64,000 bases of DNA from a virus (IMGVR_UViG_2862281513_000001:1-64000), one strand, 5' to 3'. Positions 4,093 to 53,257 are shown, counted from the stretch's first letter. Translations and numbers: made by a program. The notes: generated from the letters alone by a model not told the origin.

Positions 4093-4123
4093 CGGCCCAG
4101 AACCAGCGGCTACCAGGAGTCTA
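4093..4123 (-). promoter_or_regulatory. Late leader motif copy 1 with -10 TAGACT
   Basis: GCCGCTGGTTCTGGGCCG (4110-4093), -10 at 4123-4118, followed by a GGGCAAGGA/TCCTTGTCC hairpin over the RBS and start. Confidence 0.8.
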
Positions 4124-4462
4124 GCTACCGGCGCCCGTCAGCAGCGGATCGTCGTCGAGCGGCCCTCCGTGCCCGGACAGGGCCCGCGCGGTCGCCTCGG
4201 GGATGCTGGCCGCCACCAGGTCCTCGTACTGCTGCCTACGGGCGTCTTTCTCCGCGGCGAGCATCTCCGCCACGCGGGCGTCGTGCTGTTCCCGCAGCGT
4301 CGCCCGCAGCTCCTCGTAGACCTCTTCGGTCACGAACTTCGCGCCCTCAGGCAGCTCCGGGTCCAGCCCGACGCCGACCTCCATCCGGCCGAGGACGCCG
4401 TCCGCGAACTGCACGAACCGCGTCTCCAGCTCGCCCACGGGCAGGCCAGGGATGTCCAGCAT
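4121..4462 (-). CDS. Small fibre-associated (chaperone-like) protein
   Basis: VTEEVY and PEATARALSG motifs; GAGGAGG RBS. Confidence 0.65.
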   Translation of the reverse strand: MLDIPGLPVGELETRFVQFADGVLGRMEVGVGLDPELPEGAKFVTEEVYEELRATLREQHDARVAEMLAAEKDARRQQYEDLVAASIPEATARALSGHGGPLDDDPLLTGAGS

Positions 4463-4471
4463 GGCGCCTCC

Positions 4472-5308
4472 TCACAGACTGATGATCATGGCCCGCATGA
4501 TGAAGACGATCGAGTAGTAGTAGGCCCCGCCGCTGCCTCGGCCACCCGTCGCGGTCAGCGTGATCGGCGCGGACGCCCCCGGGGCGAGGGTGAAGCTCTC
4601 GGCCAGGAACTTGGTGCCCTGGGAGTGGACGCCGACGATCGAGCCCGTGCCGGTGTTGCGCATGTAGAACATCTCGTCGGACGCCACCCCGGTTCCGCCA
4701 GCGGCACCGGCCGGGAGAACCATCCAGACGTCGATCTCGCGCTCCGTGAACACCTTCGCCGGACGGCAGGTGTCCGGGTTGGTGATATTCACCGAGAACG
4801 TGTCCAGGGCCGTGTTCTGCGCGGCCGGGATCGGCACGTCGTTGTAGTCGCGGCTCTCGGAGTAGCTCGTGAACGACACCATGCCGCGTGGCTCGGAGCG
4901 CAACCGGCCCTGGCTGTCGCAGGCGACGACGCCGCCGAAGGTGTCGACGCTGCATGGGTACGGCCATGCCTGAGTGTTCGCCTTGACCGGGCTGCCCGCG
5001 GTCCCGTTGCCGGACAGGCCGCAGCCGGTGAGGACCTGCCCGCCGGCCGTGGGTACCAGGAGCCCGCCGTCGGGGCCGATGCTGACGTTGTTCCCGGCCT
5101 GCCCCGACAGGTGGGCGGCGATCACACCCGAGCCCTGGTCGTAGGTGATGCCGGGGCCACCGGACAGACACGGCCGGACGGCTTCGCACGGCACCTCGGC
5201 CGAGACCACGTAGGGGTTGGCAGCGGAACCGGACCCGCTGATCGTGACGTTGTCACCGGCCTGCACCGTGCAGTCGCACTGGCCTCCGCCACAGCCGCAT
5301 CGCGCCAC
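4472..5308 (-). CDS. Cys-rich fibre/minor tail protein
   Basis: GTG start ARCGCGGGQCDC; shares CGLxGxG, WxYPC, LRSEPR and ITNPDxCR with 2897..4060. Confidence 0.75.
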   Translation of the reverse strand: MARCGCGGGQCDCTVQAGDNVTISGSGSAANPYVVSAEVPCEAVRPCLSGGPGITYDQGSGVIAAHLSGQAGNNVSIGPDGGLLVPTAGGQVLTGCGLSGNGTAGSPVKANTQAWPYPCSVDTFGGVVACDSQGRLRSEPRGMVSFTSYSESRDYNDVPIPAAQNTALDTFSVNITNPDTCRPAKVFTEREIDVWMVLPAGAAGGTGVASDEMFYMRNTGTGSIVGVHSQGTKFLAESFTLAPGASAPITLTATGGRGSGGAYYYSIVFIMRAMIISL

Positions 5309-5340
5309 AGTCCCACCGTCCTTGCGGGGTTGTCTCGGCC

Positions 5341-5375
5341 CGGCCCAGAACCAGCGGCGCGCAGGGTCGAGTCTA
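5341..5375 (-). promoter_or_regulatory. Late leader motif copy 2 with -10 TAGACT
   Basis: GCCGCTGGTTCTGGGCCG at 5358-5341. Confidence 0.8.
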
Positions 5376-5385
5376 TCGACGGCCC

Positions 5386-5507
5386 TGCGGATGCCGTCCG
5401 GACGCGTCCGCGGATGGCATCCGGACACTATCCGGATGCCGCAGCGTCCACGCCTGTGACCTGGGCGGATGTCGTCCGGATGCCGTCCGGACGCGGCGTC
5501 CGGACGC
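5386..5507. repeat. TCCGGA array A (~11-bp period, two half-arrays around a TGACCTG spacer)
   Basis: TCCGGA at 5397, 5420, 5431, 5475, 5486, 5499 plus GCGGA variants at 5387, 5410, 5465. Confidence 0.85.
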
Positions 5508-5509
5508 GG

Positions 5510-6241
5510 TCAGGCGAACAGCCAGACGATCACGATGCCGTCATTGCCGGGGGTCCCGTTGACGCTGTCGCCGTCCCGGGCGAGGGCGCCGCCCGCGCCG
5601 CCGCCGAAGCCTCGTGCACCGCCGCCCGCGCCACTGGACGCGCGCTGCCAGCCGCCATGCCCGAGCCGCGCCTCACCTCCCGGACCGGACTGCCCCTGCC
5701 CGCCGTCGAGGCGGATAGAGCCGCCACTGGCGCCGCCGCCCTGGGACACGTCGCCAATCCCAGCAAGCGGACCAGCCACCCCCGAGAAGCAGGTGGGCGC
5801 GGAGCCCGACGTCATGACGACTTGCCCGCCGAAGCCGCCGTTCGCCGTGCACAGCCCGCCGAAGCTGGAGTTGCCGCCATTGCCGCCGTCGACCGTCGGC
5901 GTGCCCGCGGTGCCGCCCGCGCCCACGATGACCGTCTCGCTCGCGCCGAGCGCCGACGCCTCGATCAGCCGCTCCGAGTACCCGCCGCCCGTGCCACCTG
6001 GGTGCGCGACAAGCTGATTGGCGCTCGCCTTCGCCCCGGCCGCACCTCCCCCGGCCGCCTGCACCTGAACGAAAACCCGCGCGAGCCAGGGATAGTCGGC
6101 CTTCTCGAACGTGTCGTTGCCGGGGTCCTTGAAGTACACGATCTGCCGGAGATCGGCACTGCCCGGGACGATCGTCAGCCGGCCATCGTCGCCGACGTCG
6201 AAGTACTCCGGGTCCACGCACACTGCGGCCAGCGGACTCAC
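5510..6241 (-). CDS. Glycine-rich tail-associated protein
   Basis: VQAAGGGAAG, GGTGGGY and GNDGIVIV glycine-rich domain; start GTG 6241 or CTG 6232. Confidence 0.75.
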   Translation of the reverse strand: MSPLAAVCVDPEYFDVGDDGRLTIVPGSADLRQIVYFKDPGNDTFEKADYPWLARVFVQVQAAGGGAAGAKASANQLVAHPGGTGGGYSERLIEASALGASETVIVGAGGTAGTPTVDGGNGGNSSFGGLCTANGGFGGQVVMTSGSAPTCFSGVAGPLAGIGDVSQGGGASGGSIRLDGGQGQSGPGGEARLGHGGWQRASSGAGGGARGFGGGAGGALARDGDSVNGTPGNDGIVIVWLFA

Positions 6242-6263
6242 CTCCTGCGGTGCGAAGTGAGTC

Positions 6264-6296
6264 CGGCCCAAAACCAGCGACTACGGGAGCAGGTTA
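6264..6296 (-). promoter_or_regulatory. Late leader motif copy 3 with -10 TAACCT
   Basis: GTCGCTGGTTTTGGGCCG at 6281-6264, then a CGGACTCAC/GTGAGTCCG stem over GGAGGTGA. Confidence 0.8.
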
Positions 6297-6515
6297 ACCG
6301 CGTCCGCTCGCGCGGTGCTTCGCCAGGTCCTCCGGCCACAGCACGACGCCGCCCGGGAACGACTCCAGCGCCGCCCCCAGACTGATGGCGTACAGCGGAT
6401 GCACCTGCTCGTCCTCGTCTCCGTCGATCAGGACGCGTCCGCTGGGGAACTGCGCACCGTGCAGGATGCGCTCGCCGGGCAGATGCAGCTGGAACGGCCG
6501 CGCGAGGTCAGTCAT
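6294..6515 (-). CDS. Hypothetical protein
   Basis: ATG overlapping the upstream gene end; GC3-biased codons; HGAQFPSGRV. Confidence 0.65.
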   Translation of the reverse strand: MTDLARPFQLHLPGERILHGAQFPSGRVLIDGDEDEQVHPLYAISLGAALESFPGGVVLWPEDLAKHRASGRG

Positions 6516-6969
6516 AAGACGACGATACGGGCGCAGCCAGCAGGTGGACGGTCACGCCGGGCCCGGCCGACTCGGCGACACCAGTCCCGCGCCGTGGCCG
6601 GCTCCGCCACACCCGCACCAACGCGTACCAGGTGGTGACCTCCTCCAGTGCTGCCCAGACTGTCCGTTCGTCGCTGCCGGGCTCCGGGTCCACCACCGTC
6701 GCCGTCACGGCCGGAGCAGCCTCGTAGGGGGCAGGAAAGGACCATCGGGCCCGCCCGTCCTCGCCGGTGGTCACTACGGCCGCCACGAGCCCGCCGGGGG
6801 CCGCCACGGGTCCGACAGGGGTGACAGCCTGCGGGGCCGGATCGCTCTCCAGCGGGGCGCCACGGCTGCGACTCCGCCCGGCGATGCGGGCCCGCTGGTC
6901 AAGGCTGCGCAGCACACCGCCGAGCGGGCTGCCGATCATGCGGCGGGCGGGAGTTCCGCGCCTGGCCAA
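6508..6969 (-). CDS. Minor tail protein
   Basis: In the tail operon; WSFPAPYEAAPAVT resembles an H-type lectin/gp53-like C-terminus. Confidence 0.6.
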   Translation of the reverse strand: MARRGTPARRMIGSPLGGVLRSLDQRARIAGRSRSRGAPLESDPAPQAVTPVGPVAAPGGLVAAVVTTGEDGRARWSFPAPYEAAPAVTATVVDPEPGSDERTVWAALEEVTTWYALVRVWRSRPRRGTGVAESAGPGVTVHLLAAPVSSSYD

Positions 6970-8010
6970 CTACGCCACCTCCGTTGCGGCCGCAGCGACC
7001 TGGACCTGCACGCTCTCCGTGCCGGGCGTGGTCTCGTCGCCGCCGGTCTCCGTGACCTTCACACCGGTGATCTTCAGCCGCTGGGTGACCTTGCGGCACG
7101 TGCTGGAGCTGGTGATGTCCAGCGCCCACCCGGGCACCAGGTTCGGCACGTCGATCGCAGCGAGCGGGCTGATCGTGACCTGCTGGGTGTCGATGAACAC
7201 CGGCACCTGCGCCGAGGTGCGCCGCCGCGCCTTCGCGGCCTCCACCGCCGAAGCCGTGTCGGTGATCTCCGTCATCTGCACGTACCGCTCGTGCAGCCCA
7301 TACACCGGGTCGACACCACCGTCGGAGCCGATGACGCCGCTGTCGTCGCTGCCCTCGACGATCCACCGGGTGACGAGGGCCTTGCCGTCGTCGCTGACCT
7401 CCAGGCCGTCGGGCAGGTCCGCGTCCGACAGCCGGCCGACCGACACCAGGTGCGTCTCGGGCAGCAGCAGGACCGTCGACCCGATGACGGTGTAGTCGAT
7501 GCCCGCCTCCGCGAGCTGGTCGAGGTGGTCGCCGCTCTGCCCCACCCCGGCCGTGTACGAGCGGGAGCCGCTGATCCCGGCCTTGCCGATGACCTTCACC
7601 TTGTGGCCCGGGTCGTCCGGCGCGAACGCGTCGTCGATGAGCCACTGGGCGATCTCCGACAGGTCGACGTTCGTGAACGACTTGCTCTCATGGGGGACTC
7701 GGTCACCCAGCCACACGCTGATGTCCTCGGCGAGGATCTCGACCTCGCCGAGCGACCAGGTGACGGACGTGACTGGCCCGTCCCACACGTACTGGCCGTC
7801 TCGGAACAGCACGAGCCGGTTCCTCCACGACCCGACGTTGCCGAGCCGGCCACAGCAGTCGCCGTCCGGCTGGATCAGGGCGCGGGCCGCGCTCGTCCCG
7901 TCCAGCACCCTGTTCCACTCCACCTCCGTGAGCACGTTGGCCGCTGCGACTGTCGCGCCGTTGCGGTCGAGCAGCTGGGCGGTATGCGTTCCGCAGCCGG
8001 CTACGGACAT
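6970..8010 (-). CDS. Minor tail protein (baseplate hub-like)
   Basis: ATG at 8010 overlaps the upstream stop; VWDGPV motif; second gene after the tape measure. Confidence 0.75.
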   Translation of the reverse strand: MSVAGCGTHTAQLLDRNGATVAAANVLTEVEWNRVLDGTSAARALIQPDGDCCGRLGNVGSWRNRLVLFRDGQYVWDGPVTSVTWSLGEVEILAEDISVWLGDRVPHESKSFTNVDLSEIAQWLIDDAFAPDDPGHKVKVIGKAGISGSRSYTAGVGQSGDHLDQLAEAGIDYTVIGSTVLLLPETHLVSVGRLSDADLPDGLEVSDDGKALVTRWIVEGSDDSGVIGSDGGVDPVYGLHERYVQMTEITDTASAVEAAKARRRTSAQVPVFIDTQQVTISPLAAIDVPNLVPGWALDITSSSTCRKVTQRLKITGVKVTETGGDETTPGTESVQVQVAAAATEVA

Positions 8011-13771: not shown

Positions 13772-13801
13772 CGGGCAACCTCACGGATGAGTGCGGTTGC
13801 C

Positions 13802-13831
13802 CGGCCTAGCACCAGCGGCGATCTCAGGATA
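13802..13831 (-). promoter_or_regulatory. Late leader motif copy 4 with -10 TATCCT
   Basis: GCCGCTGGTGCTAGGCCG at 13819-13802, then a CGGGCAACC/GGTTGCCCG stem ending at the tape measure ATG. Confidence 0.8.
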
Positions 13832-13837
13832 TGCGGT

Positions 13838-14634: not shown

Positions 14635-14663
14635 GGGCGTGCCCTTGTCTCCCGCGCTACGCC

Positions 14664-14697
14664 CGGCCTAACACCAGCAGCGTGCCGGGCGATAGTA
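14664..14697 (-). promoter_or_regulatory. Late leader motif copy 5 with -10 TACTAT
   Basis: GCTGCTGGTGTTAGGCCG at 14681-14664, then a CGGGCGT/ACGCCCG stem reaching the GTG start. Confidence 0.8.
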
Positions 14698-14813: not shown

Positions 14814-15329
14814 ATGAAGCAAATGTCACCGAGTACCCAGACGGCTTCCATTCCGCCCAGCCAAACGAGCGACGAGGCACGGAAGAAACTCGCCTATGAC
14901 GCCGCGGTACAACGTCTCATCGACCAGAAAGCGACCTTGAACTTCTTTCGAGAGCGCTCTGCTGGTCTTTTTGCTGTCGCCAGTCTGATAGCGTCGATTT
15001 CCTCCACAGCTGGCCTCACCGGCGAGAAGAACCCACTGCCCCTGCCAGTCAGCATCGCGCTCATGGCGCTCATGGCCCTCATCGGCCTCTGCGCAACGTT
15101 TGTCCTGTGGCCGCTGAAACATTGGGGCTACAGCCCCAGGGCGGACGCCATCCTCGCGGCCAACAAACCTCTCGCCGATATCTACGAAGAAGCAACAAAT
15201 GGAATGTCGGCGGCCATCACCGAAAACGACAGAAAGCTGAACTTCCGCGTACGGATGTACCGGCTAGCAGGATTGCTGACCCTCTGCGAAACACTGACAG
15301 TAGTTGCTGGCGCAGCCGCTTCAACGTGA
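14814..15329 (+). CDS. Moron membrane protein (about 3 TM)
   Basis: GGGAGG RBS, lower GC, opposite strand within the tail operon. Confidence 0.75.
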   Translation: MKQMSPSTQTASIPPSQTSDEARKKLAYDAAVQRLIDQKATLNFFRERSAGLFAVASLIASISSTAGLTGEKNPLPLPVSIALMALMALIGLCATFVLWPLKHWGYSPRADAILAANKPLADIYEEATNGMSAAITENDRKLNFRVRMYRLAGLLTLCETLTVVAGAAAST

Positions 15330-16582: not shown

Positions 16583-17379
16583 TGCTGCACCCTCGGATAC
16601 CGGAAGTCGGGGCTGTAGACCCGGCTGGGGCTGGCCTGCCGGTATGGGTTGACGACCGTCAGCCACATATCGACCAGCGGCAGCCCGGTCCGGCCCTCGC
16701 TGTAGATGACCGTCGGGTCCGCGAGCTCCATCTCCACGCCCTGGCGCACCAGCCGCGTGAGGTTCCGGTTGGCCTTGCAGCCGCACGAGCCGCTGCCGCC
16801 GCACCCCTTGAGGAGGTGGCAGGTCAGCTCGGACACCGCGGCGACGGCGGCCTCGTCGACCGGCAGGCCGATCCGGTACGTCACGGTGAACGTGTCCGGC
16901 TCGCCGGGCGCGGCCGCCATGTCCTGGCAGTCCGGCCAGCAGCCGCCGCCGACCCGCACCAGCCGGCCAGGGGCGTCGACGCGGTACTGCTCGGGCGCGA
17001 GGACCTGGCCGCCGATGTTGACCTCGGTGACGTCGTAGACCGGGCCCGGCAGGTACACCTCGCACAGCTCGCCGCACGAGCAGTCCGAACGGCAGCCGCA
17101 CACGCTCGCGTTGCGCCACTGGCCGTCTGAGCCGATGTACGGGATCCACGGGCCCGTGCCCGCCCCGGCCTGGAAGGAGATGAAGCTGGACGACTCCAGG
17201 CAGGCCCTGCGGCACGGTCGTACCGTGACCGGGCATGGGCCGATCCGGCGCCCGGACAGCGCCCACAGGATCTGCGAGGCGACGAGCGTCCAGCGCTCGA
17301 GGACGTCCGCCTCGACGCCGTCGACGTCACAGCACAGGTTCGTTGGCCAGGCGTCGCATGGACCTGTCTCGATCGGCAT
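16573..17379 (-). CDS. Head-to-tail adaptor
   Basis: LWALSGRR, VRQGV and GRTGLPLVDMWL..NPY motifs typical of actinophage adaptors. Confidence 0.75.
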   Translation of the reverse strand: MPIETGPCDAWPTNLCCDVDGVEADVLERWTLVASQILWALSGRRIGPCPVTVRPCRRACLESSSFISFQAGAGTGPWIPYIGSDGQWRNASVCGCRSDCSCGELCEVYLPGPVYDVTEVNIGGQVLAPEQYRVDAPGRLVRVGGGCWPDCQDMAAAPGEPDTFTVTYRIGLPVDEAAVAAVSELTCHLLKGCGGSGSCGCKANRNLTRLVRQGVEMELADPTVIYSEGRTGLPLVDMWLTVVNPYRQASPSRVYSPDFRYPRVQQCP

Positions 17380-18083: not shown

Positions 18084-18085
18084 GG

Positions 18086-18790: not shown

Positions 18791-18822
18791 TGGGGCCCTC
18801 CAGCACGAAGCGTGCAGTGGCT

Positions 18823-18887
18823 CGGCCCACAACCAGCAGCGAACGTGTGAAGCGCCCGGCCTAGCGCCAGCGGCTGCGACCAGCATA
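18823..18887 (-). promoter_or_regulatory. Tandem late leader motif copies 6 and 7 with -10 TATGCT
   Basis: GCCGCTGGCGCTAGGCCG (18874-18857) and GCTGCTGGTTGTGGGCCG (18840-18823); downstream hairpin covers GGAGG. Confidence 0.8.
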
Positions 18888-22476: not shown

Positions 22477-22507
22477 GAGAAGGCTCCAGGTGGAGAGCAG
22501 TCCCGCC

Positions 22508-22544
22508 CGGCCCACAACCAGCGGCGTCGATGCGTTCGAGGGTG
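22508..22544 (-). promoter_or_regulatory. Late leader motif copy 8 (weak -10 CACCCT)
   Basis: GCCGCTGGTTGTGGGCCG at 22525-22508; CTCC/GGAG and GGCC/GGCC pairing over the RBS and ATG. Confidence 0.75.
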
Positions 22545-34074: not shown

Positions 34075-34914
34075 TCATGCGGGGCACGTCGACACGTTGA
34101 TCGCGCAGACGGTGCAGGTCGTCGCGACGACGTAGGTCCGCTCGACGAGCACGCGCTGCGTGTTGGTCCGGTAGTTGATCGACGGGCCGGGCTGATCCGG
34201 GACGGTCATGGCCGGGCCGCGCCGTACGACGACCGGGCCGGTGATGTACAGCCAGGCCGTGCCGGGGTCGGCGGGGATGTTCCCGGGGCCGGTGTTGGCG
34301 GTGCTGTATCCGGCGCCGATGACGACGCAGTTCCCGGCGAGCGTGGTCGGAGGACCGCCGCCCGGGTCGCGCTGGACGACGTTGCAGCAGCCCAGCAGCG
34401 CGGCGGCGCCGGCCGGGACGTGGAGAACGCCGACGCCGCCGTACTGCTCGGCCAGGCAGCCCTCCAAGGCGGCGACGCCCTGCGCCATGTCGACAGGCCC
34501 GGCGGCCGGGGTGAGGTCCGTGGCTGTCGCGGCGAGGGTGTTCGTCCAGAAGCCGAGTTCGACGGCTTCCTGCTCGCCGAGTTCGAGGGACGCCTCGGCG
34601 TGCTGGCGGGCCTCGGCGTAGCTCCAGCCCATCGTGGCGCACTCGGCGCCCGCATAGACCGTGATGGGGTCGGCGTGCTCGGTGGTCGGGCGGCAGAACT
34701 GCTTCTGCGTGGGGGCGCCGGGACTCTCGTCCGTGCCCACGCAGGGGTCGTTCCACACCTCGACCGGGCAGCAGCCGAGCGCCATCCACTCGACGCCCAG
34801 CAGCTCGTGTTCGTCCTGGACGTCGATGACTTCGGTACAGCCGCCGAGGATCCCGTACGGGAGCGGACGCCCGGGGATGGCCTCGACGCGGCGTCGCATG
34901 CCGGCGGATGCCAC
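34075..34914 (-). CDS. Minor capsid protein (putative)
   Basis: Directly after the capsid gene; GAGGAGGT RBS; WLYITGPV..VERTYVV. Confidence 0.65.
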   Translation of the reverse strand: MASAGMRRRVEAIPGRPLPYGILGGCTEVIDVQDEHELLGVEWMALGCCPVEVWNDPCVGTDESPGAPTQKQFCRPTTEHADPITVYAGAECATMGWSYAEARQHAEASLELGEQEAVELGFWTNTLAATATDLTPAAGPVDMAQGVAALEGCLAEQYGGVGVLHVPAGAAALLGCCNVVQRDPGGGPPTTLAGNCVVIGAGYSTANTGPGNIPADPGTAWLYITGPVVVRRGPAMTVPDQPGPSINYRTNTQRVLVERTYVVATTCTVCAINVSTCPA

Positions 34915-34938
34915 CTGCGCACCTCCTCATAGGGTGCC

Positions 34939-34964
34939 GCGCCGAGACCCGTAGGTCTCGGCGC
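34939..34964 (-). terminator. Hairpin after the major capsid gene (partial terminator or stability element)
   Basis: GCGCCGAGACC-CGTA-GGTCTCGGCGC perfect 11-bp stem. Confidence 0.65.
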
Positions 34965-34980
34965 TGGACGTGGGCAGGGG

Positions 34981-36615: not shown

Positions 36616-36649
36616 GGGGCCGGTCTCCAAATGATCGATCTTGGAGACC

Positions 36650-36685
36650 CGGCCCAAAACCAGCGGTCGTCTGTAGCAGATAGTA
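36650..36685 (-). promoter_or_regulatory. Late leader motif copy 9 with -10 TACTAT
   Basis: ACCGCTGGTTTTGGGCCG at 36667-36650, then a GGGCCGG-GTCTCCAA/TTGGAGAC-CGGCCC stem up to the capsid ATG. Confidence 0.85.
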
Positions 36686-36727: not shown

Positions 36728-37504
36728 CTACTGAGTGAATCGACGCCTCGGGTGCATGGGCTCGGCCGGCCGCTCTCCCGTGAGTAGGAACTTGGCTATA
36801 ACTTCCGCGTAATCACGCCTGAGCAGGTTGCCGTGCACCACCTTACTTACCGTGACAATCCCCAAACCGAGATTGTCAGCGATGGTGCGCACAGTGACCA
36901 CGCCCGCCCGCCTGCGCAGTTCGTCCCATACGAATCCCATATGGGGGAGGACCGACAGCACCGTCACAAGTTCGGTCGTGGACAGGGCATCAAGGAGGTC
37001 GGCCGCCGTAACAGCCTCCCAGAACCCGACCGCCGCAGTTCCTCCCTCGGCTACCGGCCCTAGGAACGGATTCGACATCAGCAGCGCGCGAGCGGCCTGC
37101 TGCTCACCCACGAGTTCTGACGGATCCGCTTGCAAGAGATCATCAATGAACCACTGCGACGGCCCCCTCCCGAAGTACGCCTGACGCATGCCTGGTGGAT
37201 GCTCCTTGCCATCCGAGGCAGCGGCACTCAGCAGTTCGATTTGTTCTTCGGTCTCGCTGCGAAGCAACAGCCATTCTCGATGGTTACCGTTCCAGGCGGT
37301 CACGAGAGCCGCGAGGACAGGCCTCGTTGGGATCCGCTGTCCCCTCAACGCTGCGTAGAGCGTCGACTTCGGGATCTGCGTCTCTTTGGAGATCGCTTCG
37401 ACCGTCTTGGCGTCGAAGCCAGCCTCATCCCGCAGGCGGCGGAGAGCGCGGGCGAATCGGGCCTGCGGACTGTCGTCATTGAGCGGTGTTGCTCGACGCG
37501 GCAT
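36728..37504 (-). CDS. XRE-family HTH protein with a second HTH-like region (moron)
   Basis: FARALRRLRDEAG..IPKSTLYAALRGQRIP; lower GC3. Confidence 0.75.
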   Translation of the reverse strand: MPRRATPLNDDSPQARFARALRRLRDEAGFDAKTVEAISKETQIPKSTLYAALRGQRIPTRPVLAALVTAWNGNHREWLLLRSETEEQIELLSAAASDGKEHPPGMRQAYFGRGPSQWFIDDLLQADPSELVGEQQAARALLMSNPFLGPVAEGGTAAVGFWEAVTAADLLDALSTTELVTVLSVLPHMGFVWDELRRRAGVVTVRTIADNLGLGIVTVSKVVHGNLLRRDYAEVIAKFLLTGERPAEPMHPRRRFTQ

Positions 37505-37972: not shown

Positions 37973-38158
37973 CTACTTGGCGGTCGACTCGGCCGCGTTC
38001 TTCGGCGGCACTTCGCGGATGACGCTCCCGGCGTACCGCTTACCGACGCTCTCGGCGGTGGGCTTGCTCGCCGAGGCGAACACCACCTTCTCTCGGCCGT
38101 CGGTGGTCACGACGACTTCGTAGCGGGTCTTGTTGCCACCCTTGCAGGCGCATCCCAT
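37973..38158 (-). CDS. Small MGCAC-start virion-module protein
   Basis: 61 aa, coupled to the upstream gene. Confidence 0.7.
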   Translation of the reverse strand: MGCACKGGNKTRYEVVVTTDGREKVVFASASKPTAESVGKRYAGSVIREVPPKNAAESTAK

Positions 38159-42329: not shown

Positions 42330-42579
42330 CGGTGCCCTCCTGTGTCGCACCGGCGAGGGTCACGGAGTTGTCGGCGGCACGGAGGAAGCCCCACATCCCG
42401 AGCGGGATCGTCCCGTACCCCGTGTCGGCGGTGAGGGTGACGTAGACGCTGGCCTCCTCGCCGTCGGGGAGCTGGTCGAAGTGGGTGACCGCCACCGCGG
42501 CGGCGTCCTGGATGAGGCCGACGATGGCGGCCGCGTGCTCGGGTGAGGCGTCGTCCGTCAGGAAGGCCGGCTCAGCCAT
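42322..42579 (-). CDS. Hypothetical protein
   Basis: Overlapping start/stop coupling on both sides. Confidence 0.7.
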   Translation of the reverse strand: MAEPAFLTDDASPEHAAAIVGLIQDAAAVAVTHFDQLPDGEEASVYVTLTADTGYGTIPLGMWGFLRAADNSVTLAGATQEGTDG

Positions 42580-42814
42580 CGGCGCTCACCTTCTCGGCCT
42601 CCCGGCTGGGGACGGTCACACGGTCGGGCGTCGGCGTCTCGTCGATGGCCTGGTTGTCGCGCTGCCGCCAGGCGAGGAGTTCCTCCCAGACCTCCCGGCC
42701 TGGGCAGCGGGAGCACCAGCCGAACGCCCGGTGCCCTGCGCGGGAGTGGCCGGGCGGGGCGACGTGCAGCTTTGGCTGCTCCACCACCGTCAGCTCGTCA
42801 GTTCCGTCGCTCAC
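42572..42814 (-). CDS. Small HxxxxH-CxxC protein
   Basis: GHSRAGHRAFGWCSRC; paralogue of 42998..43372. Confidence 0.65.
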   Translation of the reverse strand: MSDGTDELTVVEQPKLHVAPPGHSRAGHRAFGWCSRCPGREVWEELLAWRQRDNQAIDETPTPDRVTVPSREAEKVSADG

Positions 42815-43005
42815 TGCTGGTCTCCCTGGGGGGTGTTGGGGCAGGGTTCGAGGCGGGTGAGGTAGAGCGTCGTGGGCCCGCTCGTCGCGATCGGCCCGTC
42901 GGGGCCGTTCAGGGTGAAGCCGAGGACGTCGAGGGGGCGGGCTTCGAGGACCTGGAGGCCCCCGCAGGCCGCGCACAGGGAGAGGTCGCGACGGCACTCA
43001 GCCAC
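42811..43005 (-). CDS. Small Cys-containing hypothetical protein
   Basis: GGAGG RBS before GTG 43005; CAAC. Confidence 0.55.
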   Translation of the reverse strand: MAECRRDLSLCAACGGLQVLEARPLDVLGFTLNGPDGPIATSGPTTLYLTRLEPCPNTPQGDQQ

Positions 43006-43372
43006 TGGTGACCTCCTGGGCCGTCTCGCAGCCGAAGCAGAACGCGAACCGGCCGACCTCATGCACGCCCTGAGGGGTGGTCACGGTGAAACCGGCGTCG
43101 AGGACGGTGTCGCTGCGCCCGCAGCTGGGGCAGTCGACGGTTCGTGAGTTGACGTCGGCGATGAGAGGGCCGCCACCCTCGTCGTCCTCGTCGTCGCCGT
43201 CCGGCGTGGCCGTCGAGGCGTGCTGGGCGGCTTCGTAGCGGGCCTCCTCGTGGACCTGCCAGGCGGCCAGCTCCTCGGCGACGGTCCGGCCGTGGCAGAG
43301 GGAGCAGAAGCCGTGCACGCGGTGCGAGGGGTTCGAATGGCCGAGGGGGGCCGCCCGCATGAGGTCACCCAC
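42998..43372 (-). CDS. Small Zn-binding protein
   Basis: GHSNPSHRVHGFCSLC plus CPSC...CFGC. Confidence 0.65.
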   Translation of the reverse strand: MGDLMRAAPLGHSNPSHRVHGFCSLCHGRTVAEELAAWQVHEEARYEAAQHASTATPDGDDEDDEGGGPLIADVNSRTVDCPSCGRSDTVLDAGFTVTTPQGVHEVGRFAFCFGCETAQEVTSG

Positions 43373-43556
43373 GGTCGTCCTCCTCGTCGTTGCAGATCTC
43401 GCACGCCGTCCAGGTGCCGACGACGGACACGCCGCCCGGGGTGAGCATGAGGATGTCGCCGGTGGTGCGCGTCCACGCCTTGCACGTCTTGCACCAGTCC
43501 TCGCGGGCCGGGCCCGGGGTGACGATCACGGTCAGGGGCGCCGGGGAGGCCATCAC
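43365..43556 (-). CDS. Small Zn-ribbon protein
   Basis: CKTC...CEIC; overlaps the portal stop. Confidence 0.6.
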   Translation of the reverse strand: MMASPAPLTVIVTPGPAREDWCKTCKAWTRTTGDILMLTPGGVSVVGTWTACEICNDEEDDRG

Positions 43557-46230: not shown

Positions 46231-46234
46231 CCGG

Positions 46235-47364: not shown

Positions 47365-47502
47365 GATCTCCCCTAACTCGTCTGCAGTAGCGGGACGTTA
47401 GCGCACAGTCCCGCAGCTGGGCGCGCCTACGCCGTTCAGACCGCGTCTCGGGCCGCTGGAACCGACGCGCGCAGTGACGTCGCACCGGTTAAAGATGATC
47501 AA

Positions 47503-48489
47503 GTGACGCTGTCTCCTCCCATCGAGCCGATGCTGGCCGAAGCGCGGCGCGAGCTGCCGTCGGGCAGGGCGCTGCCCGGGCGCCTGGTCGCCGAGCAGAA
47601 GCCGGACGGCTACCGCGCCGTGCTCTTCGCCCACACCGGCAAGGTCATGCTCCACTCACGCAACGGCGCGGACCTGACGCCCGCGTTCCCGGAGATCGCC
47701 GCCGCGGCCTCCGCGCTCGAGGAGGACCTCGTCCTCGACGGCGAGCTCGTCGTGCCGCACGAGGGACGGCTGCACTTCGGCCAGCTCCAGAACCGGGCCC
47801 GCCGCCGTGGCCGGGGCGCGGTGGCGGCCGCCGCCGAGCACCCCGCCTACCTCATCGTCTTCGACGTCCTGGAGGCCGACGGGGTCGAGCTGCTGGACCG
47901 CCCGTACCGGGAGCGCCGCGCCCGGCTTGAGGACCTCTTCGCCCGCGAGGTGCTGGGCGGGCCGTTCACCCTGTGCCCGGCGACCACGGACCGAGCAACC
48001 ATGCTCGACTGGCTCGATCCGGCGTGGGGCGCGGCCGGGATCGAGGGCGTCGTCTGCAAGGGCAGCGAGCAAAAGTACCTGCCCGGCAAGCGGGCGTGGA
48101 TCAAGGTCCGGTCGCGCGTGACGGCCGAGGGAGTGATCGGCGGCGTCACCGGCACCCTCGCGTCACCGGCTTCACTGCTGCTCGCCCGGTACGACCACGC
48201 GGGCCGGCTGCGGCTGGTCGCCCGTTCCACTCCCCTGCCGACCGCTGTACGGCGAGACCTCGCCGGACGCCTCCACCCTGCCGGACCCGATCATCCTTGG
48301 CACGGGCGGCGCTTCTCGGCCGGCTGGGGCACTCGCGGCGAGCTTCAGTACCACCCCGTCGCCCCGGACCTCGTCGCCGAGTTCCTGGCCGACACGTCAG
48401 TGGACGAGGGGATCTACCGCCATCCAGTCCGGTTCCTGCGACTGCGCGACGATCTGAGCCCCGAAGACGTGACCACCACCAGCGGATAG
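47503..48489 (+). CDS. ATP-dependent DNA ligase (LigC/LigD ligase-domain-like)
   Basis: EPMLA, EQKPDGYRA (KxDG), LDGELV, FDVL, EGVVCK and WIKV. Confidence 0.92.
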   Translation: MTLSPPIEPMLAEARRELPSGRALPGRLVAEQKPDGYRAVLFAHTGKVMLHSRNGADLTPAFPEIAAAASALEEDLVLDGELVVPHEGRLHFGQLQNRARRRGRGAVAAAAEHPAYLIVFDVLEADGVELLDRPYRERRARLEDLFAREVLGGPFTLCPATTDRATMLDWLDPAWGAAGIEGVVCKGSEQKYLPGKRAWIKVRSRVTAEGVIGGVTGTLASPASLLLARYDHAGRLRLVARSTPLPTAVRRDLAGRLHPAGPDHPWHGRRFSAGWGTRGELQYHPVAPDLVAEFLADTSVDEGIYRHPVRFLRLRDDLSPEDVTTTSG

Positions 48490-48558
48490 GTCGACCACCC
48501 TTCTTGTACGCGTAGAGCAGGCCGACGCGCGCACCTGCATCTGCGGATGACAGGCGTC

Positions 48559-50148
48559 TCACTTGCCGATCCTCCGCCCGTACGAGGACGCCGGCCCTGT
48601 CGGCGACACACCCCGCCCGAGCCCGCCGCGCGGCGCCGTCGGCAGCGGGGCGTGGACGATCGCACCCTTGTTGGCCTCCGGGATCAGGCCGTACACCAGG
48701 ACACAGGAGGCGTCGATCCGGCCCGGCGAGTCGGCATCGGTGGGCTGCCACGTCGCCCACTCGTTCTCCAGGTCGGGGAACGCTCCGCGCAGCCGCACCC
48801 GGTCCTCGACCATCTGCTGCGCGATCGGCTCCGCCCTCAAGAGCTTGCCCTGCTTGGCGCTGACCGCGTCGATCATCGGCTTGAGCCGGTCCTTCGGGAT
48901 GGCGCCCTCCTCCTGGAGCGCCTTCCACGCCGTGTCGATGGCGAGCGTGCACATGTCGCGGCCGTAGTTCCACTCGACGTAGATCACGGCCGCGTTCGTC
49001 TCGTACGCCAGCAGGCACGCGGTACGGGACCACTCCGCCGACGACATGGCTTTCGTCCGGTCGTGCGTGATCCAGACCCGGTTGTCCGCGCCGAGGAAAC
49101 CGCCGATGACGCCCGCGGTGTCCCGGCCGCCACCCGACGGGTCGATCGAGACGGCGATCTTCTGCGGCTCCACCACGGTGACGCCGTCGCGGATCGTGCG
49201 CAGCAAGTCCCGGGAGACGAGCGCGCCCTCGGACGGCTGCGGATCGCCCTGCGACAGGGCGTGCCAGTCCCGCACGGTCGACGTCCGCTTGACGTCGTCC
49301 CACCAGGCGATCAGCTTGCGCCGGTTCTTCGTCGGGATCTTCGGGTGCGGCAGCGGGTCACCGTCACGCCGGCCGAGCGGGTCAGGGCCGAACTTGGTGG
49401 GGTTGGCGATGGCCGGGAGGTGGACGACCTTCCACCGGCCGCCCTCCTCCAAGCGCCCGTCCTCCTCCAGCCGACGCCCGGCGAAGTCGTCCGGATGCCA
49501 CCGGGTCTGGATGGCGACCACGGCGTTGCGGTCCGGCTGGAGCCGCTTGAGCGCAGCCGACGACCACCAGTCGTGAACCTTCTCGCGCATCTTCCGCGAC
49601 TCGGCCTCCGCACGGTCCTTGTGCGGGTCATCGACCACGAGCAGGTTGACCGAGAAGCCGGTGAGGCCTGCCCCCAGGCTGACGGAGCGGACGCCGCCGC
49701 CCTGGTTCGTGTCGTAGTCCTGCGCGGCCTCCGACCCGGGCAGCAGCGACAGCCCGTACTCGCCGCCGTACTCGCCGATGTACTGCCGGATCGTCTTGCC
49801 TCGCCGCAGCGCCAGGTCATCGGAGTACGAGGTGACCGCAACACGGTCCTCGCCGTGCAGGCACAGCCACCAGAACGGAAACCACTCAGCCGTCGTGGTC
49901 GACTTCCCCACCTGGGCCGGGGTGATGACCAGGAGCCGGTCGTAGTCACCGCGCTCCAGGCCCACCAGCGCATCGCTGATCACCTTCAGGTGCGGCCGCA
50001 TCCGGTAGCCCGGGTCCAGCCCGCGCGCGAGCGTCGCCGGGTCCCGCAGCAGATCCTTCGCAGCCGCGAGCTTGGCAGCCTGGAGCCGCCGGAACACCTC
50101 CGCGTCGTCGAGGTGGCCCAGCTCTCCGAAGGCAGGCGTGACGGTCAC
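48559..50148 (-). CDS. terL: Terminase large subunit
   Basis: PAQVGKS Walker A, LVVDD Walker B, IQTRWH coupling motif, SIDPS and SPGRIDA nuclease motifs. Confidence 0.92.
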   Translation of the reverse strand: MTVTPAFGELGHLDDAEVFRRLQAAKLAAAKDLLRDPATLARGLDPGYRMRPHLKVISDALVGLERGDYDRLLVITPAQVGKSTTTAEWFPFWWLCLHGEDRVAVTSYSDDLALRRGKTIRQYIGEYGGEYGLSLLPGSEAAQDYDTNQGGGVRSVSLGAGLTGFSVNLLVVDDPHKDRAEAESRKMREKVHDWWSSAALKRLQPDRNAVVAIQTRWHPDDFAGRRLEEDGRLEEGGRWKVVHLPAIANPTKFGPDPLGRRDGDPLPHPKIPTKNRRKLIAWWDDVKRTSTVRDWHALSQGDPQPSEGALVSRDLLRTIRDGVTVVEPQKIAVSIDPSGGGRDTAGVIGGFLGADNRVWITHDRTKAMSSAEWSRTACLLAYETNAAVIYVEWNYGRDMCTLAIDTAWKALQEEGAIPKDRLKPMIDAVSAKQGKLLRAEPIAQQMVEDRVRLRGAFPDLENEWATWQPTDADSPGRIDASCVLVYGLIPEANKGAIVHAPLPTAPRGGLGRGVSPTGPASSYGRRIGK

Positions 50149-50816
50149 TCGTCACCGTCGTGCTCGTCGCCGGCCGGGTCGGGCTCGTCCTCCTGGTCCT
50201 CGCCGTCGAGCGGGTAGCTCTCCTCGCCATCGTCCTCGTCGTCGCTGCCGTCGGTGGCCTGCGCGCGGCGGGCGACGGTCGCCGCCAGCTCGGCGAGGCG
50301 TACGCGCCGCTGCTCCGGGGGCAGGCCGGCGAACTCCTCGATCTGCACGCTGAGCGGGTCGCCTCCGGGGCCGGTGACCGCGATCGTGGCGGTCGGATCG
50401 CCGAGGAGGGTGCGGCGCCACTTCATCGTCGTGTCCACGAAGCGGGTGAACTCGGCAAGCGTCATGTCGGGGGCCAGCTGCTGCACGCGGGGCAGCGCCT
50501 GGCCGATCATGCCGGTCATGATCCGGAGCACGCGGACGTCTTCGCGGGCTGCTCGTCGGCGCTCCTCTTCCATCTCGGCGGCGTATTGGCGGGAGAGGTG
50601 GGCGTCCCAGGCGGCGACGCGTTCCTGCCAGCGGAAGCGGGTCGCGGTGACCTGGGCGCTGCGGTGGGTCCAGTTCAAGACCTCTGCAACGGCGCTCAGT
50701 GAGCGTGCAATGCCTTGGTCGCGGAATGTGAGGAACTGGCCATGCCTCTTAGCGGTTTCTCCGGACTGTCGCTCCCAGGGGTCCAGGGAGGGGTCGAGGG
50801 TGATGCGGTCGCTCAT
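50145..50816 (-). CDS. Terminase small subunit (putative)
   Basis: PWERQSGET..RSL..RWQERVAAWD HTH; GTGA overlap with terL. Confidence 0.75.
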   Translation of the reverse strand: MSDRITLDPSLDPWERQSGETAKRHGQFLTFRDQGIARSLSAVAEVLNWTHRSAQVTATRFRWQERVAAWDAHLSRQYAAEMEEERRRAAREDVRVLRIMTGMIGQALPRVQQLAPDMTLAEFTRFVDTTMKWRRTLLGDPTATIAVTGPGGDPLSVQIEEFAGLPPEQRRVRLAELAATVARRAQATDGSDDEDDGEESYPLDGEDQEDEPDPAGDEHDGDE

Positions 50817-50896
50817 GTTGGTCACGATCCCTGGGGGTGTGGAGGCCCGTAGAGGGGACGCGTGTGCCCCTCTACGGGTCTGGTGACGTGCGGGGC

Positions 50897-51742
50897 TTAG
50901 GTGGCGGCTGGCTCGTCCTGCTCGGCGGCCTGCTTGGCGTGTTCTTCGACTTCGCGGCGGGCGATGTCGGTGAGGAGCGCGATCATCGTGGTGAAGTTCC
51001 GGACGTCCTTGCACCGGCCGAAGGCGTACACCGCGGCGGCGAACCCCTCGAACACCTCGACGGGGGCGACGCCGACCAGGTCGGTGCCGTTGGCGATGGC
51101 GGTGACGGCGCCCTTGAAGTCCTCCATCTGGTGCGGGAGGAACATGAGCGTGGCGGCGCGCCAGTCGAACTCGCCGTGCGGGATCGCGAGCTTCGTGTCG
51201 TCCGGCTCCACGGTGGGGAGCTGGTCCTCGTCGAGGCCGGTGGCGATCAGGTCGTCCACGTTGTCGATCATCGCGACGAGCTGGGCGAGGACGTCCTTGT
51301 CGGGGTCGCCGTGCAGCTCGTTGTGCGCGATCTGCTTCGCGATGACCTCGGAGCGCCGCATCGTGCGGGTGTCGACGATGACGGGGATCCGGGCGAGGCC
51401 CGCGGCCCGTGCCGCCCGGGAGCGGTGGTGGCCCGAGATCACCTCGACGGGGCCGGCGCCGCCGGGCTGGTGGCAGTAGGGCAGCGATTCGAGCATGCCG
51501 CGCTTGCGGATGTTGCCGGTGAGCCGCTCGAAGTGCCGCGGCTGCATCACCTGCGCGTTGATGTCCTGCTCGCGGAGCGTGGTGACGTCGACCCACTTGA
51601 TGAACAGGTCCTCGCCGATCTGCATGACGTCCTGCGGCGGGTTCTCCGTCGACCACTCCACCTTGGCGCCGGCCTGCACCACCTCCCCCAGCTCGCCCGG
51701 CGTGAGCAGCTCCGGCTCGCCCTCCGGGGCCGGGGTGGTCAC
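50897..51742 (-). CDS. ParB/Srx-like N-terminal domain protein
   Basis: NAQVM, ISGHHRSRAA and QIAHNELHG; GTGA-coupled to the upstream gene. Confidence 0.85.
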   Translation of the reverse strand: MTTPAPEGEPELLTPGELGEVVQAGAKVEWSTENPPQDVMQIGEDLFIKWVDVTTLREQDINAQVMQPRHFERLTGNIRKRGMLESLPYCHQPGGAGPVEVISGHHRSRAARAAGLARIPVIVDTRTMRRSEVIAKQIAHNELHGDPDKDVLAQLVAMIDNVDDLIATGLDEDQLPTVEPDDTKLAIPHGEFDWRAATLMFLPHQMEDFKGAVTAIANGTDLVGVAPVEVFEGFAAAVYAFGRCKDVRNFTTMIALLTDIARREVEEHAKQAAEQDEPAAT

Positions 51743-53193
51743 TTCTTCGCCTTCTTGCGGCTTGCGCGCCATGCCTTCTCCTTCGCGAGGAACGTGGTGA
51801 GGGTGGTGGGGATGTCGTCCTGGACCCAGTCGGCGCGGTACGACAGCTTGTAGCCGTCCGGGTGCTTGGCCCGGGACTCGAGTTGCATCAGCCCGCGCAG
51901 GCCCTTGGCCTCGGGGTGCCGGGTGTACTCGACGGTGACGAGGCCGTTCGACGCGGCGAGGAGGATCTCCGAGGCGCCGGTGAACACGAGCTTCGCGGTG
52001 TCGCGGCGCAGCGCGAGCATCGTCGCGAGGCGGGTCAGGCGCAGGTCGTAGTGCGGGGCGCCGAACGCGAACCGCATCAGCAGGTGCGTCGTGTACTTCG
52101 TGGCGCCGGGGTACGGGCGGGTCATCGTCTCCGCGCCGTAGCCGATGACGCCGGCCACGAAGCCGTCGATGACGACGAGCATGTTGTACGAGCCGGGCGC
52201 GGCGGCGAGCCGGTGCATCCACAGGTCGCGGTAGTAATCAACCTCCGTCCCCTTTGCCGCAAGTACGCCAACGCGGGACTGGTCGGTGACCTGGTAGTCC
52301 GGGGGGATGATCGGTAGGGAGGTAGGGCCGGTCGACCGGGACATGCCCAGGGCGACCTTGGGGCCTCCCGTGAGCTTGAAAATCTCCTCGGGCCGGTTGC
52401 TGATGACGAAGGCGCGGGCGACGTCGCCGAGGGGGTGGGCGAACACCGGGGTCTCGTGCGCGGCGATCCCGGAGCGCTCCTCCTGGAGGAACATCAGCAG
52501 CGCCGGCTTGTCCCGCATATGGTCGGCGAGCCGCTGCATGTCGACGTCCGGGTCGAACACCGCGTACTTCGGTTCGGCCCACTCGATGCGGCCGCCGGTG
52601 TCGAAGAACTTCTCGAAGCCGGCCTTGTAGGTGGGCGGCGCCGCGATGATGATCGCGTGCGGGTCGTCCTCGGCGAGGGCGATGTGGTCCCACATGCACA
52701 TCGGGGTGAACTTGACGCCGGGGAGCCGGTCGCCGATCTGCTTCAAGGAGCCGGCGAGCCGGGCCTTGTGCTCGGCCTCGCGCTCGACCATGTCGGTGAC
52801 GAGGTTCGTCCAGTAGTCCACCTCGGGCTTGGCCTGCATGCGGGCCAGCCAGTGGACGTACAGGAGGTGCGCGGCCTGCTCGTGGGGCGGCGCGTCGGGG
52901 ATCTCGACGGGCTCGCCGTCGAGCGTCATGCCCAGGCCGGCCAGATCGCCGCCGGACACGTACGTGCCGACGATGCCGGTGTACAGGGTGACGTCCGAGG
53001 TCTCCATGCACGTCGGCGGGATACCGGCGTTGGCGGCGACGAGGGCCGCGGCGAACGAGCCCACGCCGACCTCGACGTACCGGGTGTACTGGTCGCGGGG
53101 CAGCTTGTTGAAGACCTGCCGGTAGAAGGCGCGGTCCGGGGCGGACGAGTTCCCGGCGAAGAGGACGCCGGGTGCTGCGAAACCTGCTGGCAT
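51739..53193 (-). CDS. Adenine methyltransferase-fold protein with a possible GNAT/Mom-like C-terminal domain
   Basis: RYVEVGVGSF (motif I-like), AAPPTY (motif IV-like), C-terminal VVIDGFVAGVIGY. Confidence 0.6.
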   Translation of the reverse strand: MPAGFAAPGVLFAGNSSAPDRAFYRQVFNKLPRDQYTRYVEVGVGSFAAALVAANAGIPPTCMETSDVTLYTGIVGTYVSGGDLAGLGMTLDGEPVEIPDAPPHEQAAHLLYVHWLARMQAKPEVDYWTNLVTDMVEREAEHKARLAGSLKQIGDRLPGVKFTPMCMWDHIALAEDDPHAIIIAAPPTYKAGFEKFFDTGGRIEWAEPKYAVFDPDVDMQRLADHMRDKPALLMFLQEERSGIAAHETPVFAHPLGDVARAFVISNRPEEIFKLTGGPKVALGMSRSTGPTSLPIIPPDYQVTDQSRVGVLAAKGTEVDYYRDLWMHRLAAAPGSYNMLVVIDGFVAGVIGYGAETMTRPYPGATKYTTHLLMRFAFGAPHYDLRLTRLATMLALRRDTAKLVFTGASEILLAASNGLVTVEYTRHPEAKGLRGLMQLESRAKHPDGYKLSYRADWVQDDIPTTLTTFLAKEKAWRASRKKAKK

Positions 53194-53221
53194 GGGAGTC
53201 CCAGGGGGTCAGCGGTCCGCT

Positions 53222-53257
53222 CGGCCCACAACCAGCAGCGTTCGGGGGCACAGGGTA
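53222..53257 (-). promoter_or_regulatory. Late leader motif copy 10 with -10 TACCCT
   Basis: GCTGCTGGTTGTGGGCCG at 53239-53222 upstream of the packaging operon. Confidence 0.8.

Follow-up and report, generated by a model that had tools for sequence, protein, structure and literature searches.

The DNA considered here is a stretch of 64,000 nucleotides (nt) from a virus (IMGVR_UViG_2862281513_000001:1-64000), referred to below as the window. It corresponds to G000:C1:4171224-4235223 of a 9.6-Mb Streptomyces genome and has a G+C content of 70.7%. Almost all genes in the window lie on the - strand, and their PHROG and Pfam matches describe the virion module of a siphophage: a DAM-like/GNAT-like gene, a ParB-like gene, and the small and large terminase genes on the packaging side; the portal, a MuF-protease fusion, and the major capsid gene in the head region; and a glycosyltransferase, the major tail, the tape measure, minor tails, and fibre-like genes in the rest. 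Protein matches to the cultured temperate Streptomyces phage TurkishDelight span window coordinates from about -2,000 to +119,000. The prophage is therefore about 120 kb long, and its early genes lie beyond the right end of the window. The subject of this work is a short conserved element, here called the box, that recurs in front of virion genes of this prophage, and the way in which it may take part in their expression.

An earlier note on this DNA, made from the sequence alone, described ten intergenic - strand copies of an 18-nt motif heading the packaging, capsid, fibre, major tail, chaperone, and tape measure genes. These observations stand, both for the copies and for the gene labels (the chaperone gene being one in tail-chaperone position). 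The 18-mer pattern gives eight exact and two one-mismatch matches (6264 and 36650), all on the - strand and all between open reading frames (ORFs), against a chance expectation of zero in 100 shuffles. The motif is real, but the conserved block is 21 nt long, GCYGCUGGUUNUGGGCCGGGC (GCYGCTGGTTNTGGGCCGGGC). With a covariance model, exactly ten copies in the window score 28.8-35.8 bits, and the next match scores 16.4 bits. The ten copies belong to nine virion-gene units, one of which (major tail) has two copies in tandem. They are confined to the late third of the prophage, with no copy in its immunity or early region. A weight-matrix scan of the whole 9.6-Mb genome returned only the ten copies and one relic-like near-copy, which rules out a host regulon; other genomes give single matches of about 30 bits, which are coding sequences, e.g. 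of ABC transporters. The near-copy, outside the window at G000:C1:2188624-2188644 (+), has one mismatch (G13->C), with a GGGCCGGAC/GUCCGGCCC hairpin after it. It lies in a gap of 2.1 kb where ORFs are sparse, and a divergent gene for a secreted or membrane protein is downstream of this gap. It has no -10 element and no start codon at the usual distances, and looks like a relic of a related phage.

Copies are named here by the lowest coordinate of the 18-mer; the lowest coordinate of the 21-nt box is 3 nt less (4090 for copy 4093), and all features listed in this paragraph are on the - strand. The packaging-region unit is headed by a box at 53219..53239, which lies 12 nt downstream of the -10-like hexamer TACCCT (53252..53257) and precedes the ATG at 53193 of the DAM-like/GNAT-like gene (484 amino acids, aa). 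For the major capsid gene (ATG 36615), the hexamer TACTAT (36680..36685) is again 12 nt upstream of the box (36647..36667). The box of a fibre-like 429-aa gene (22505..22525; ATG 22476) follows a weak hexamer, CACCCT (22539..22544). In the tandem pair, the distal box GGCGCUAGG (18854..18874) adjoins the -10 element, TATGCT (18882..18887), which is 7 nt upstream, and the proximal box (18820..18840) heads the major tail gene (GTG 18790). Two further boxes are those of the 185-aa gene in tail-chaperone position (GGUGUUAGG, 14661..14681; TACTAT, 14692..14697; GTG 14634) and of the tape measure gene (GGUGCUAGG, 13799..13819; TATCCT, 13826..13831; ATG 13771). The last three boxes head a fibre-assembly-like gene (6261..6281; TAACCT, 6291..6296; probable start CTG 6232), a Cys-rich gene without assigned function (5338..5358; TAGACT, 5370..5375; GTG 5308), and a fibre-like paralogue of the 22476 gene (4090..4110; TAGACT, 4118..4123; TTG 4060 or GTG 4069). 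Nine of the ten copies thus have the -10-like hexamers listed in the earlier note, and the tenth (18823) is the second copy of the tandem pair.

Several details of these junctions are worth recording. TAACCT at 6291-6296 contains the TAA stop of the upstream ORF 6294-6515, and TAGACT at 4118-4123 contains the TAG stop of ORF 4121-4462, so that a single hexamer is both stop codon and promoter element. The start of the fibre-assembly-like gene appears, by orthologue alignment, to be CTG (6230-6232), with ATC in some relatives, and lies 8 nt after a strong AGGAGG (L056 and L112 leaders). A gene of about 171 aa with low G+C (0.58) is inserted at 14814-15329 (+) between the tail genes and the cassette of the chaperone-position gene; it looks like a moron, and because of this insertion the chaperone-position gene needs its own promoter here. 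An XRE-type helix-turn-helix (HTH) gene of 258 aa at 36728-37504 (-; Pfam HTH_31, E = 1e-9; codon bias weak) adjoins the capsid promoter upstream and is absent from the same junction of TurkishDelight.

The box is not restricted to this prophage. Clusters of boxes in one orientation occur in prophages of four other genomes of the genus and in several other Streptomycetaceae genera, and in IMG/VR the box is found on at least 117 stretches from at least 54 contigs. Five prophages, with 38 copies between them, show the same order of -10 element, box, and start codon, as do 219 IMG/VR contexts, the corresponding gene junctions of TurkishDelight, and Cluster BG phages. TurkishDelight has nine copies, at the capsid, major tail (two), chaperone, tape measure (two), and three minor-tail/tailspike junctions. 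The Cluster BG phages (Xkcd426, TP1604, Mischief19, and others) carry a variant allele, GGYGNTAGG, at their capsid and major-tail genes, in which T10->G always occurs together with G13->A; in the window, this allele is present at 13802, 14664, and 18857. The record of Xkcd426 has the box and has no annotated integrase or repressor. A partial variant box in the same phage (L154, 7617-7637, -) has neither outer strand of the box, follows the gp9 stop and two terminator-like hairpins, and is upstream of no gene; it is probably a relic or a chance match. A given junction can also do without the cassette. In this prophage, the minor-tail gene 6970-7935, its start placed near 8010 by overlap, has translational coupling through a TGATG overlap (7936-8010, -). 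Its orthologues in TurkishDelight and in two other prophages (G115 and G147) carry the promoter and box, and it follows that the cassette has been gained or lost at individual junctions. The best explanation of this distribution is that -10 element, box, and start codon form a late-gene expression cassette of a large lineage of Streptomyces siphophages, comprising the TurkishDelight-like prophages and, with the variant allele, the BG phages.

The promoter part of the cassette is simple. In the window, the -10 element ends 6-14 nt upstream of the box and has no -35 partner. In the five related prophages, a TANNNT ends 4-14 nt upstream of the box in 28 of 38 copies, compared with 0.8% at random positions, and 183 of 219 unique IMG/VR contexts have a nearby TANNNT upstream. 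Alignment of 33 promoters on the hexamer gives the consensus G-C-T-A-n-n-C-T and no conserved -35 column, as in actinobacterial -10-only promoters, which have TANNNT without a fixed -35. Transcription in actinobacteria starts 6-7 nt (6-8) after TANNNT. This geometry places the predicted start of the late messenger RNAs (mRNAs) at the box or within a few bases of it, which supports the proposal that the motif stands at the predicted 5' end of late transcripts.

The tie to the start codon is the closer one. The start codon follows the 18-mer by 25-37 nt, most often by 30-31 nt, and among 202 single copies there is no confirmed exception to the 25-37 nt range; in 25 of the 202 the start was flagged as not found or distant, and on inspection these looked like artefacts of the start finder (ATC or CTG starts, or the cut-off on G+C at third codon positions). 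By comparison, 27 of the 202 (13%) have their -10 element at 17-46 nt or lack one. It follows that the position of the box is fixed more closely relative to the start codon than relative to the -10 element. Tandem boxes are spaced by 26, 27, 27, 34, 39, and 44 nt, with no helical phasing.

These distances bear on the possibility that the box is an operator or activator site in double-stranded DNA (dsDNA) at +1 to +21 of the late promoters, the leader hairpins being unrelated translational tuning. A site directly downstream of the -10 element in about 85% of copies would lie within the RNA polymerase footprint, tandem copies exist, and asymmetric intergenic sites in one orientation have a precedent in the stoperators of Cluster A phages (PMC3203893). 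On the other hand, the looser and in 13% of single copies aberrant position relative to the -10 element, next to a start-codon spacing without confirmed exception, the unphased tandem spacings, the confinement to the late region, and the presence of the box in Xkcd426 without an annotated repressor all speak against such a site. A further point against it comes from the structure of the box itself.

The box can fold in the transcript into a bulged stem-loop. Helix P1 consists of pairs 1-21, 2-20, and 3-19 and is separated by a bulge (G4-C5, 3 nt in some copies) from helix P2, which consists of U6.G18, G7-C17, G8-C16, Y9-G15, and U10.G14 and is closed by the loop N-U-G (G-N-U-A-G in the variant allele). 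P2 is invariant except for the exchange of U9 and C9. For covariation, we used 286 copies defined by core positions 5-18 only, so that the flanks were left unconstrained. A19 occurs only with U3 (16/16, U3 being 25% overall), A20 only with U2 (7/7, U2 being 5% overall), and A1 occurs with U21 in 3/5; shifted control pairings (2-19, 3-20, and others) show no association. When the structure (((..(((((...)))))))) is imposed on 50 distinct box sequences, 18 cells are changed on both sides, compared with 4.2 +/- 2.9 in shuffles (0/500 reach 18), and the paired fraction falls from 91% to at most 58% in slid controls. The thermodynamically preferred (minimum free energy) register, 5-19, is ruled out for the box by ten uncompensated breaks. 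Fourteen copies seem to break P1; all are preceded by G and read GCCG+[A/U]+CUGG, so that P1 is kept with a 3-nt bulge.

The compensated variants occur in at least five gene contexts for pair 3-19 and in at least three for pair 2-20, and they coexist in the prophage of the window: GCU..AGC (U3-A19) at 53222 and 18823, GUC..GAC (U2-A20) at 6264, and ACC..GGU (A1-U21) at 36650. Because different variants within one phage cannot reflect a changed protein specificity, the changes point to base pairing in a single strand, and because the box sits behind a promoter, that strand is RNA. Compensatory changes at 2-20 and 3-19 are the kind of support by which structured cis-regulatory RNA hairpins are recognised. 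On this comparative evidence, the box is shown as a small stem-loop in the transcript, with a predicted role at the RNA level. The suggestion that the motif acts as RNA is thereby supported through Watson-Crick and G-U covariation within the molecule, and the mostly transitional substitutions of the motif, correctly noticed earlier, are accounted for by pairing within the motif and not by a partner in trans. Such coexisting covariation is unexpected for recognition of dsDNA by a protein. Since the box covaries as a hairpin, both a dsDNA operator and a linear toehold are disfavoured, and we regard the dsDNA site as quite unlikely.

The leader between the box and the start codon was described earlier as a hairpin that covers the Shine-Dalgarno (SD) sequence or the start in nine of the copies. 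Tested against dinucleotide shuffles, this holds for part of them. The leaders of 36650 (capsid, z -2.4 to -3.5), 13802 (tape measure, z -3.5 to -3.7), and 4093 (z -2.3) are significant, those of 6264 and 53222 are borderline (z about -1.5), and those of 22508, 18823, 14664, and 5341 are not significant. In the capsid leader, box positions 13-21 together with CUCCAA pair with UUGGAGACCGGCCC, over the SD to the start codon (36616..36655, -), and this long hairpin and the box's own fold are mutually exclusive. The tape-measure hairpin CGGGCAACC/GGUUGCCCG (13772..13803, -) has the SD (GAGG) in its 3' arm, and the hairpin GGCAAGGA/UCCUUGUCC of the 4093 leader (4055..4093, -) lies over the TTG start.

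Comparison among phages narrows the lock on the ribosome-binding site (RBS) to two families. Of 13 diverged phages, 12 (BG phages among them) have a capsid leader in which a CUCC/UCUC tract and box positions 13-21 together pair with the SD through the bases before the start codon, and the sequences of the helix arms differ among phages. The tape-measure hairpin is kept with compensatory changes in 20 phages, including an A-U/C-G exchange in 7 of the 20 sequences. The proportion of leaders with z < -2 is 50% for tape-measure, 30% for major-tail, and about 0% for chaperone and Cys-rich fibre leaders. Judged from the sequences, SD-covering hairpins are real and covary for the capsid and tape-measure leaders only; the general lock, which would include chaperone, fibre-like, and other leaders, does not stand.

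The SD-covering helices reuse the 3' strand of the box. Shuffling the flanks lowers the pairing of the 3' half of the box relative to native leaders (p = 1e-10). Complementarity of this half to the segment before the start codon shows no general enrichment when compared with non-motif genes or with a scrambled box, and a second hairpin between box and start shows only a weak tendency (mean z -0.43). In the capsid leaders, position 21 changes along with position 1 and also with its partner in the long helix. These joint changes fit two alternative folds, and a single evolutionary event may explain them.

The model put forward earlier was that the box is a linear toehold, through which one trans-acting small RNA (sRNA) invades RBS-locking hairpins on all late mRNAs. 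The transitional substitutions agree with it, as does the fact that the SD-covering helices at capsid and tape measure take their 5' arm from the 3' end of the box. However, the transitions find their explanation in intramolecular pairing, and a lock is missing from about half of the leaders. Nor is the 5' half held accessible: the unpaired probability of positions 1-12 is 0.31, compared with 0.32 with shuffled flanks, and positions 1-3 pair with 19-21. An ungapped antisense scan (G.U allowed, at least 17/21 pairs) of 184 kb, made up of the prophage of about 120 kb plus flanks, and of TurkishDelight found as complements only the opposite strands of the sites themselves, the wobble-tolerant partner being the other half of the motif. 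A 20/21 match near window coordinate 72729 is antisense to coding sequence and has no counterpart in TurkishDelight. Pairing with ribosomal RNA (rRNA), as in a translational enhancer, was also rejected: the 16S duplex reaches -31.5 kcal/mol, compared with -29.4 +/- 2.3 kcal/mol for shuffled motifs, and 23S is no better. Neither the single sRNA nor the exposed toehold is supported by these results, and we give the toehold model hardly any credence.

A search for a protein partner recognised no RNA- or DNA-binding candidate among the non-virion genes common to the prophage, TurkishDelight, and Xkcd426, which are two WhiB paralogues, HNH-like genes, and DUF3307 and DUF3560 genes. The 153-aa gene adjoining WhiB has homologues labelled DUF3307, which we take to be a membrane-protein family. 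Both WhiB-family paralogues belong to the early region (L156:1938-2210 and 17094-17372, -; about 91938 and 107094 in window coordinates). Few non-structural genes besides WhiB are common to the prophage, TurkishDelight, and the Cluster BG phages, and a link between WhiB and the -35-less late promoters is conceivable. No large protein of DxDGD type, as in a phage RNA polymerase, was found, and no nucleic-acid-binding domain is seen in the genes that immediately precede the first late unit. Genes starting at 4060, 5308, 6232, 22476, and 38158 (-) share Cys-rich N-termini of the type M-x-x-C-x-C; most of them are box-led, the exception being the 61-aa gene at 38158, which has no box. For the syntenic 61-aa MxCxC protein, encoded upstream of the capsid leader, neither Pfam nor PHROG offers a family, and its structural model (predicted local distance difference test, pLDDT, 73) has no fold match at E <= 0.001. 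A row of small Cys-rich ORFs (63-124 aa; CxxC...CxxC, zinc-ribbon-like) lies at 42572-43556 (-) between the portal and MuF genes; they are conserved as gp12-14 of TurkishDelight and have no match in Xkcd426 by tblastn. By their sequence, these small CxxC proteins are candidate nucleic-acid binders, possibly including a Com-like role.

Known motifs did not account for the box. Only two transfer RNAs reach the Rfam gathering threshold, with nothing at the boxes at E <= 10, and no description of the box emerged from literature searches on the motif sequence or on Streptomyces phage late promoters. A G-quadruplex, T-loop mimicry, a sigma-54 or extracytoplasmic function (ECF)-type promoter, and a NusG TTNTTT pause were each rejected, as they leave conserved non-G positions or the variant allele unexplained.

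Strong stem-loops without U-tracts are found after the capsid gene (34900-34980) and before the small terminase gene (50679-50896), both on the - strand. They may be terminators or processing sites that separate late units. Such stem-loops, found also upstream of some boxes, together with the small promoter-proximal RNA hairpin and its conserved loop, would suit a nut/boxB-like site at which a phage antiterminator carries RNA polymerase through terminator-like hairpins between late units. Yet about ten sites each have their own promoter, so that read-through is less needed; the tight spacing from box to start has no role in antitermination; and neither a conserved boxA-like second element nor, among the genes screened, an N-, Q-, or NusG-like protein was recognised. 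Antitermination of this kind therefore seems improbable to us.

The hairpin could also work alone, as a 5'-terminal stem-loop that, like the leaders of T7 phi10 or ompA, makes promoter escape easier and retards 5'-end-dependent decay by RNase J/E. Stabilisers of this kind work with short unpaired 5' tails in the range of 0-4 nt, and when the start is assumed to be 6-7 nt after the -10 element, such a tail is predicted for 158 of 183 copies with a nearby -10; the failure of the partner searches would also be in keeping with it. But an autonomous stabiliser needs a stable helix and not a fixed sequence. The helix of the box is weak. Hundreds of copies from diverged phages show no change in the bulge, the loop nucleotide U12, or three G.U pairs, and the fixed distance to the start codon is left unexplained. 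It is an unlikely reading, though one that still carries some weight.

Given the invariant bulge, loop, and wobble pairs, the marginal helix, and the lack of a host regulon, it is most likely that one sequence-specific protein reads the hairpin. We therefore favour, with somewhat better than even confidence, the view that the box is a 5'-leader RNA hairpin, probably protein-bound, that coordinates the stability and translation of late mRNAs. A trans-acting RNA-binding protein had been named in the earlier note as the alternative to an sRNA, and it is our best guess for the partner. Under the favoured view, a host-type -35-less -10 element (GC-TAnnCT) would start each late mRNA at or near the box, the box would fold in the transcript, and the SD and start codon would follow it by about 30 nt. 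The protein, probably phage-encoded, would mark all late mRNAs at their 5' end, shield that end, and keep the box folded. In the capsid, tape-measure, and 4093 leaders, the 3' strand of the box could instead pair with the SD or start in a far more stable helix. Since this lock reuses the 3' strand, a folded box would weaken the lock and raise translation, in a manner resembling Com/mom or a RAT (ribonucleic antiterminator); the remaining leaders would have the tag without the lock.

Several points weigh against a protein-read hairpin. The covariation tests P1 only, P2 being invariant, and copies from related phages are not independent, so that the shuffle statistics overstate the significance. 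The isolated hairpin is weak, about -3 to -5 kcal/mol. Its fold is predicted to lose to alternative folds in every leader, and forcing it costs 6-16 kcal/mol, the cost being highest at the capsid (14.8) and the tape measure (15.6). Several leaders keep their SD paired in a short local helix even when the box is folded. No obvious RNA binder is seen among the shared non-virion genes (WhiB, HNH-like, DUF3307, DUF3560), and the box may have a dual DNA/RNA role. A further and bolder proposal is that one RNA-binding protein, of phage or host, flips bistable leaders between box hairpin and RBS-covering helix on about ten late units; this we offer tentatively, as possible and less probable than the coordinating hairpin. 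If true, it would be a genome-wide, protein-triggered switch of translation and stability of virion genes, a new form of phage late control in which the logic of Com/mom is widened to a whole regulon.

To our knowledge, late-gene control in Streptomyces phages is poorly understood. The box is a compact, covariation-supported RNA motif, absent from Rfam and the searched literature. Hundreds of copies mark the genes for capsid, tail, tape measure, and fibre, both in prophages from several genera of the Streptomycetaceae and in phages that are in culture and easy to handle (TurkishDelight, Cluster BG). Used as bait, the hairpin would be a handle on the late regulator. The leaders would serve as a test bed for 5'-end control of mRNA stability and translation in actinobacteria, and the box is a possible small, portable, phage-responsive expression tag for Streptomyces engineering.

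Several known systems resemble the box in part. In phage Mu, the Com protein binds 5' of, and overlapping, an RBS-hiding helix and opens the translation of mom, one late gene. The box site likewise overlaps an RBS-hiding helix that a bound protein would open; Com serves one gene, however, whereas the box is on about ten units with the lock on some only, and no Com-like protein was recognised. RAT hairpins, read by proteins of the BglG/LicT family, are about 29 nt long and compete with a transcription terminator. They share with the box an imperfect bulged hairpin whose 3' strand is also the 5' arm of a variable, more stable helix, in the leaders of several operons; in contrast, the competitor of the box covers the SD or start and has no U-tract, and no CAT/PRD protein is seen. 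Phage lambda has two nut sites with boxA. Its N/boxB system is alike in having a small promoter-proximal RNA hairpin with a conserved loop, read in lambda by a phage protein, and unlike in that the box occurs at ten sites, without a boxA-like element and with a fixed spacing to the start codon.

The 5' stabilisers of T7 phi10, ompA, and SP82 require stability and not sequence, whereas the box has an invariant sequence and a weak helix. Stoperators, at which the immunity repressor binds dsDNA, occur in the early as well as the late region. Those of Cluster A are similar to the box as many asymmetric sites in short intergenic gaps, co-oriented with transcription, and differ in that boxes are in the late region only, covary internally, and occur in Xkcd426. 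The synthetic toehold switch also has its SD and start in a helix whose 5' arm adjoins upstream sequence; for the box, a trigger RNA was looked for without success, the sequence upstream folds on itself, and the lock is missing from most leaders.

The actinophage systems that come nearest are the start-associated sequences (SAS) and extended start-associated sequences (ESAS) of Cluster K. The SAS is a 13-bp GGGATAGGAGCCC-like unit that overlaps the SD, lies 3-7 bp from the start, and is found at non-structural genes only, and for the inverted repeats of the ESAS the authors found RNA pairing unsupported (PMC3203893). SAS/ESAS occur in 11-19 copies per actinophage genome, a range shared in the comparison with the box (PMC3203893). 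Both they and the box are short asymmetric repeats in a single orientation, at a fixed short distance to the start and absent from the host. The box differs in having another sequence, a distance of 25-37 nt to the start, a position behind a -10 element, an association with virion genes, and pairing that is backed by covariation. With these differences, the SAS/ESAS of Cluster K are the closest described actinophage analogue of the box (PMC3203893).

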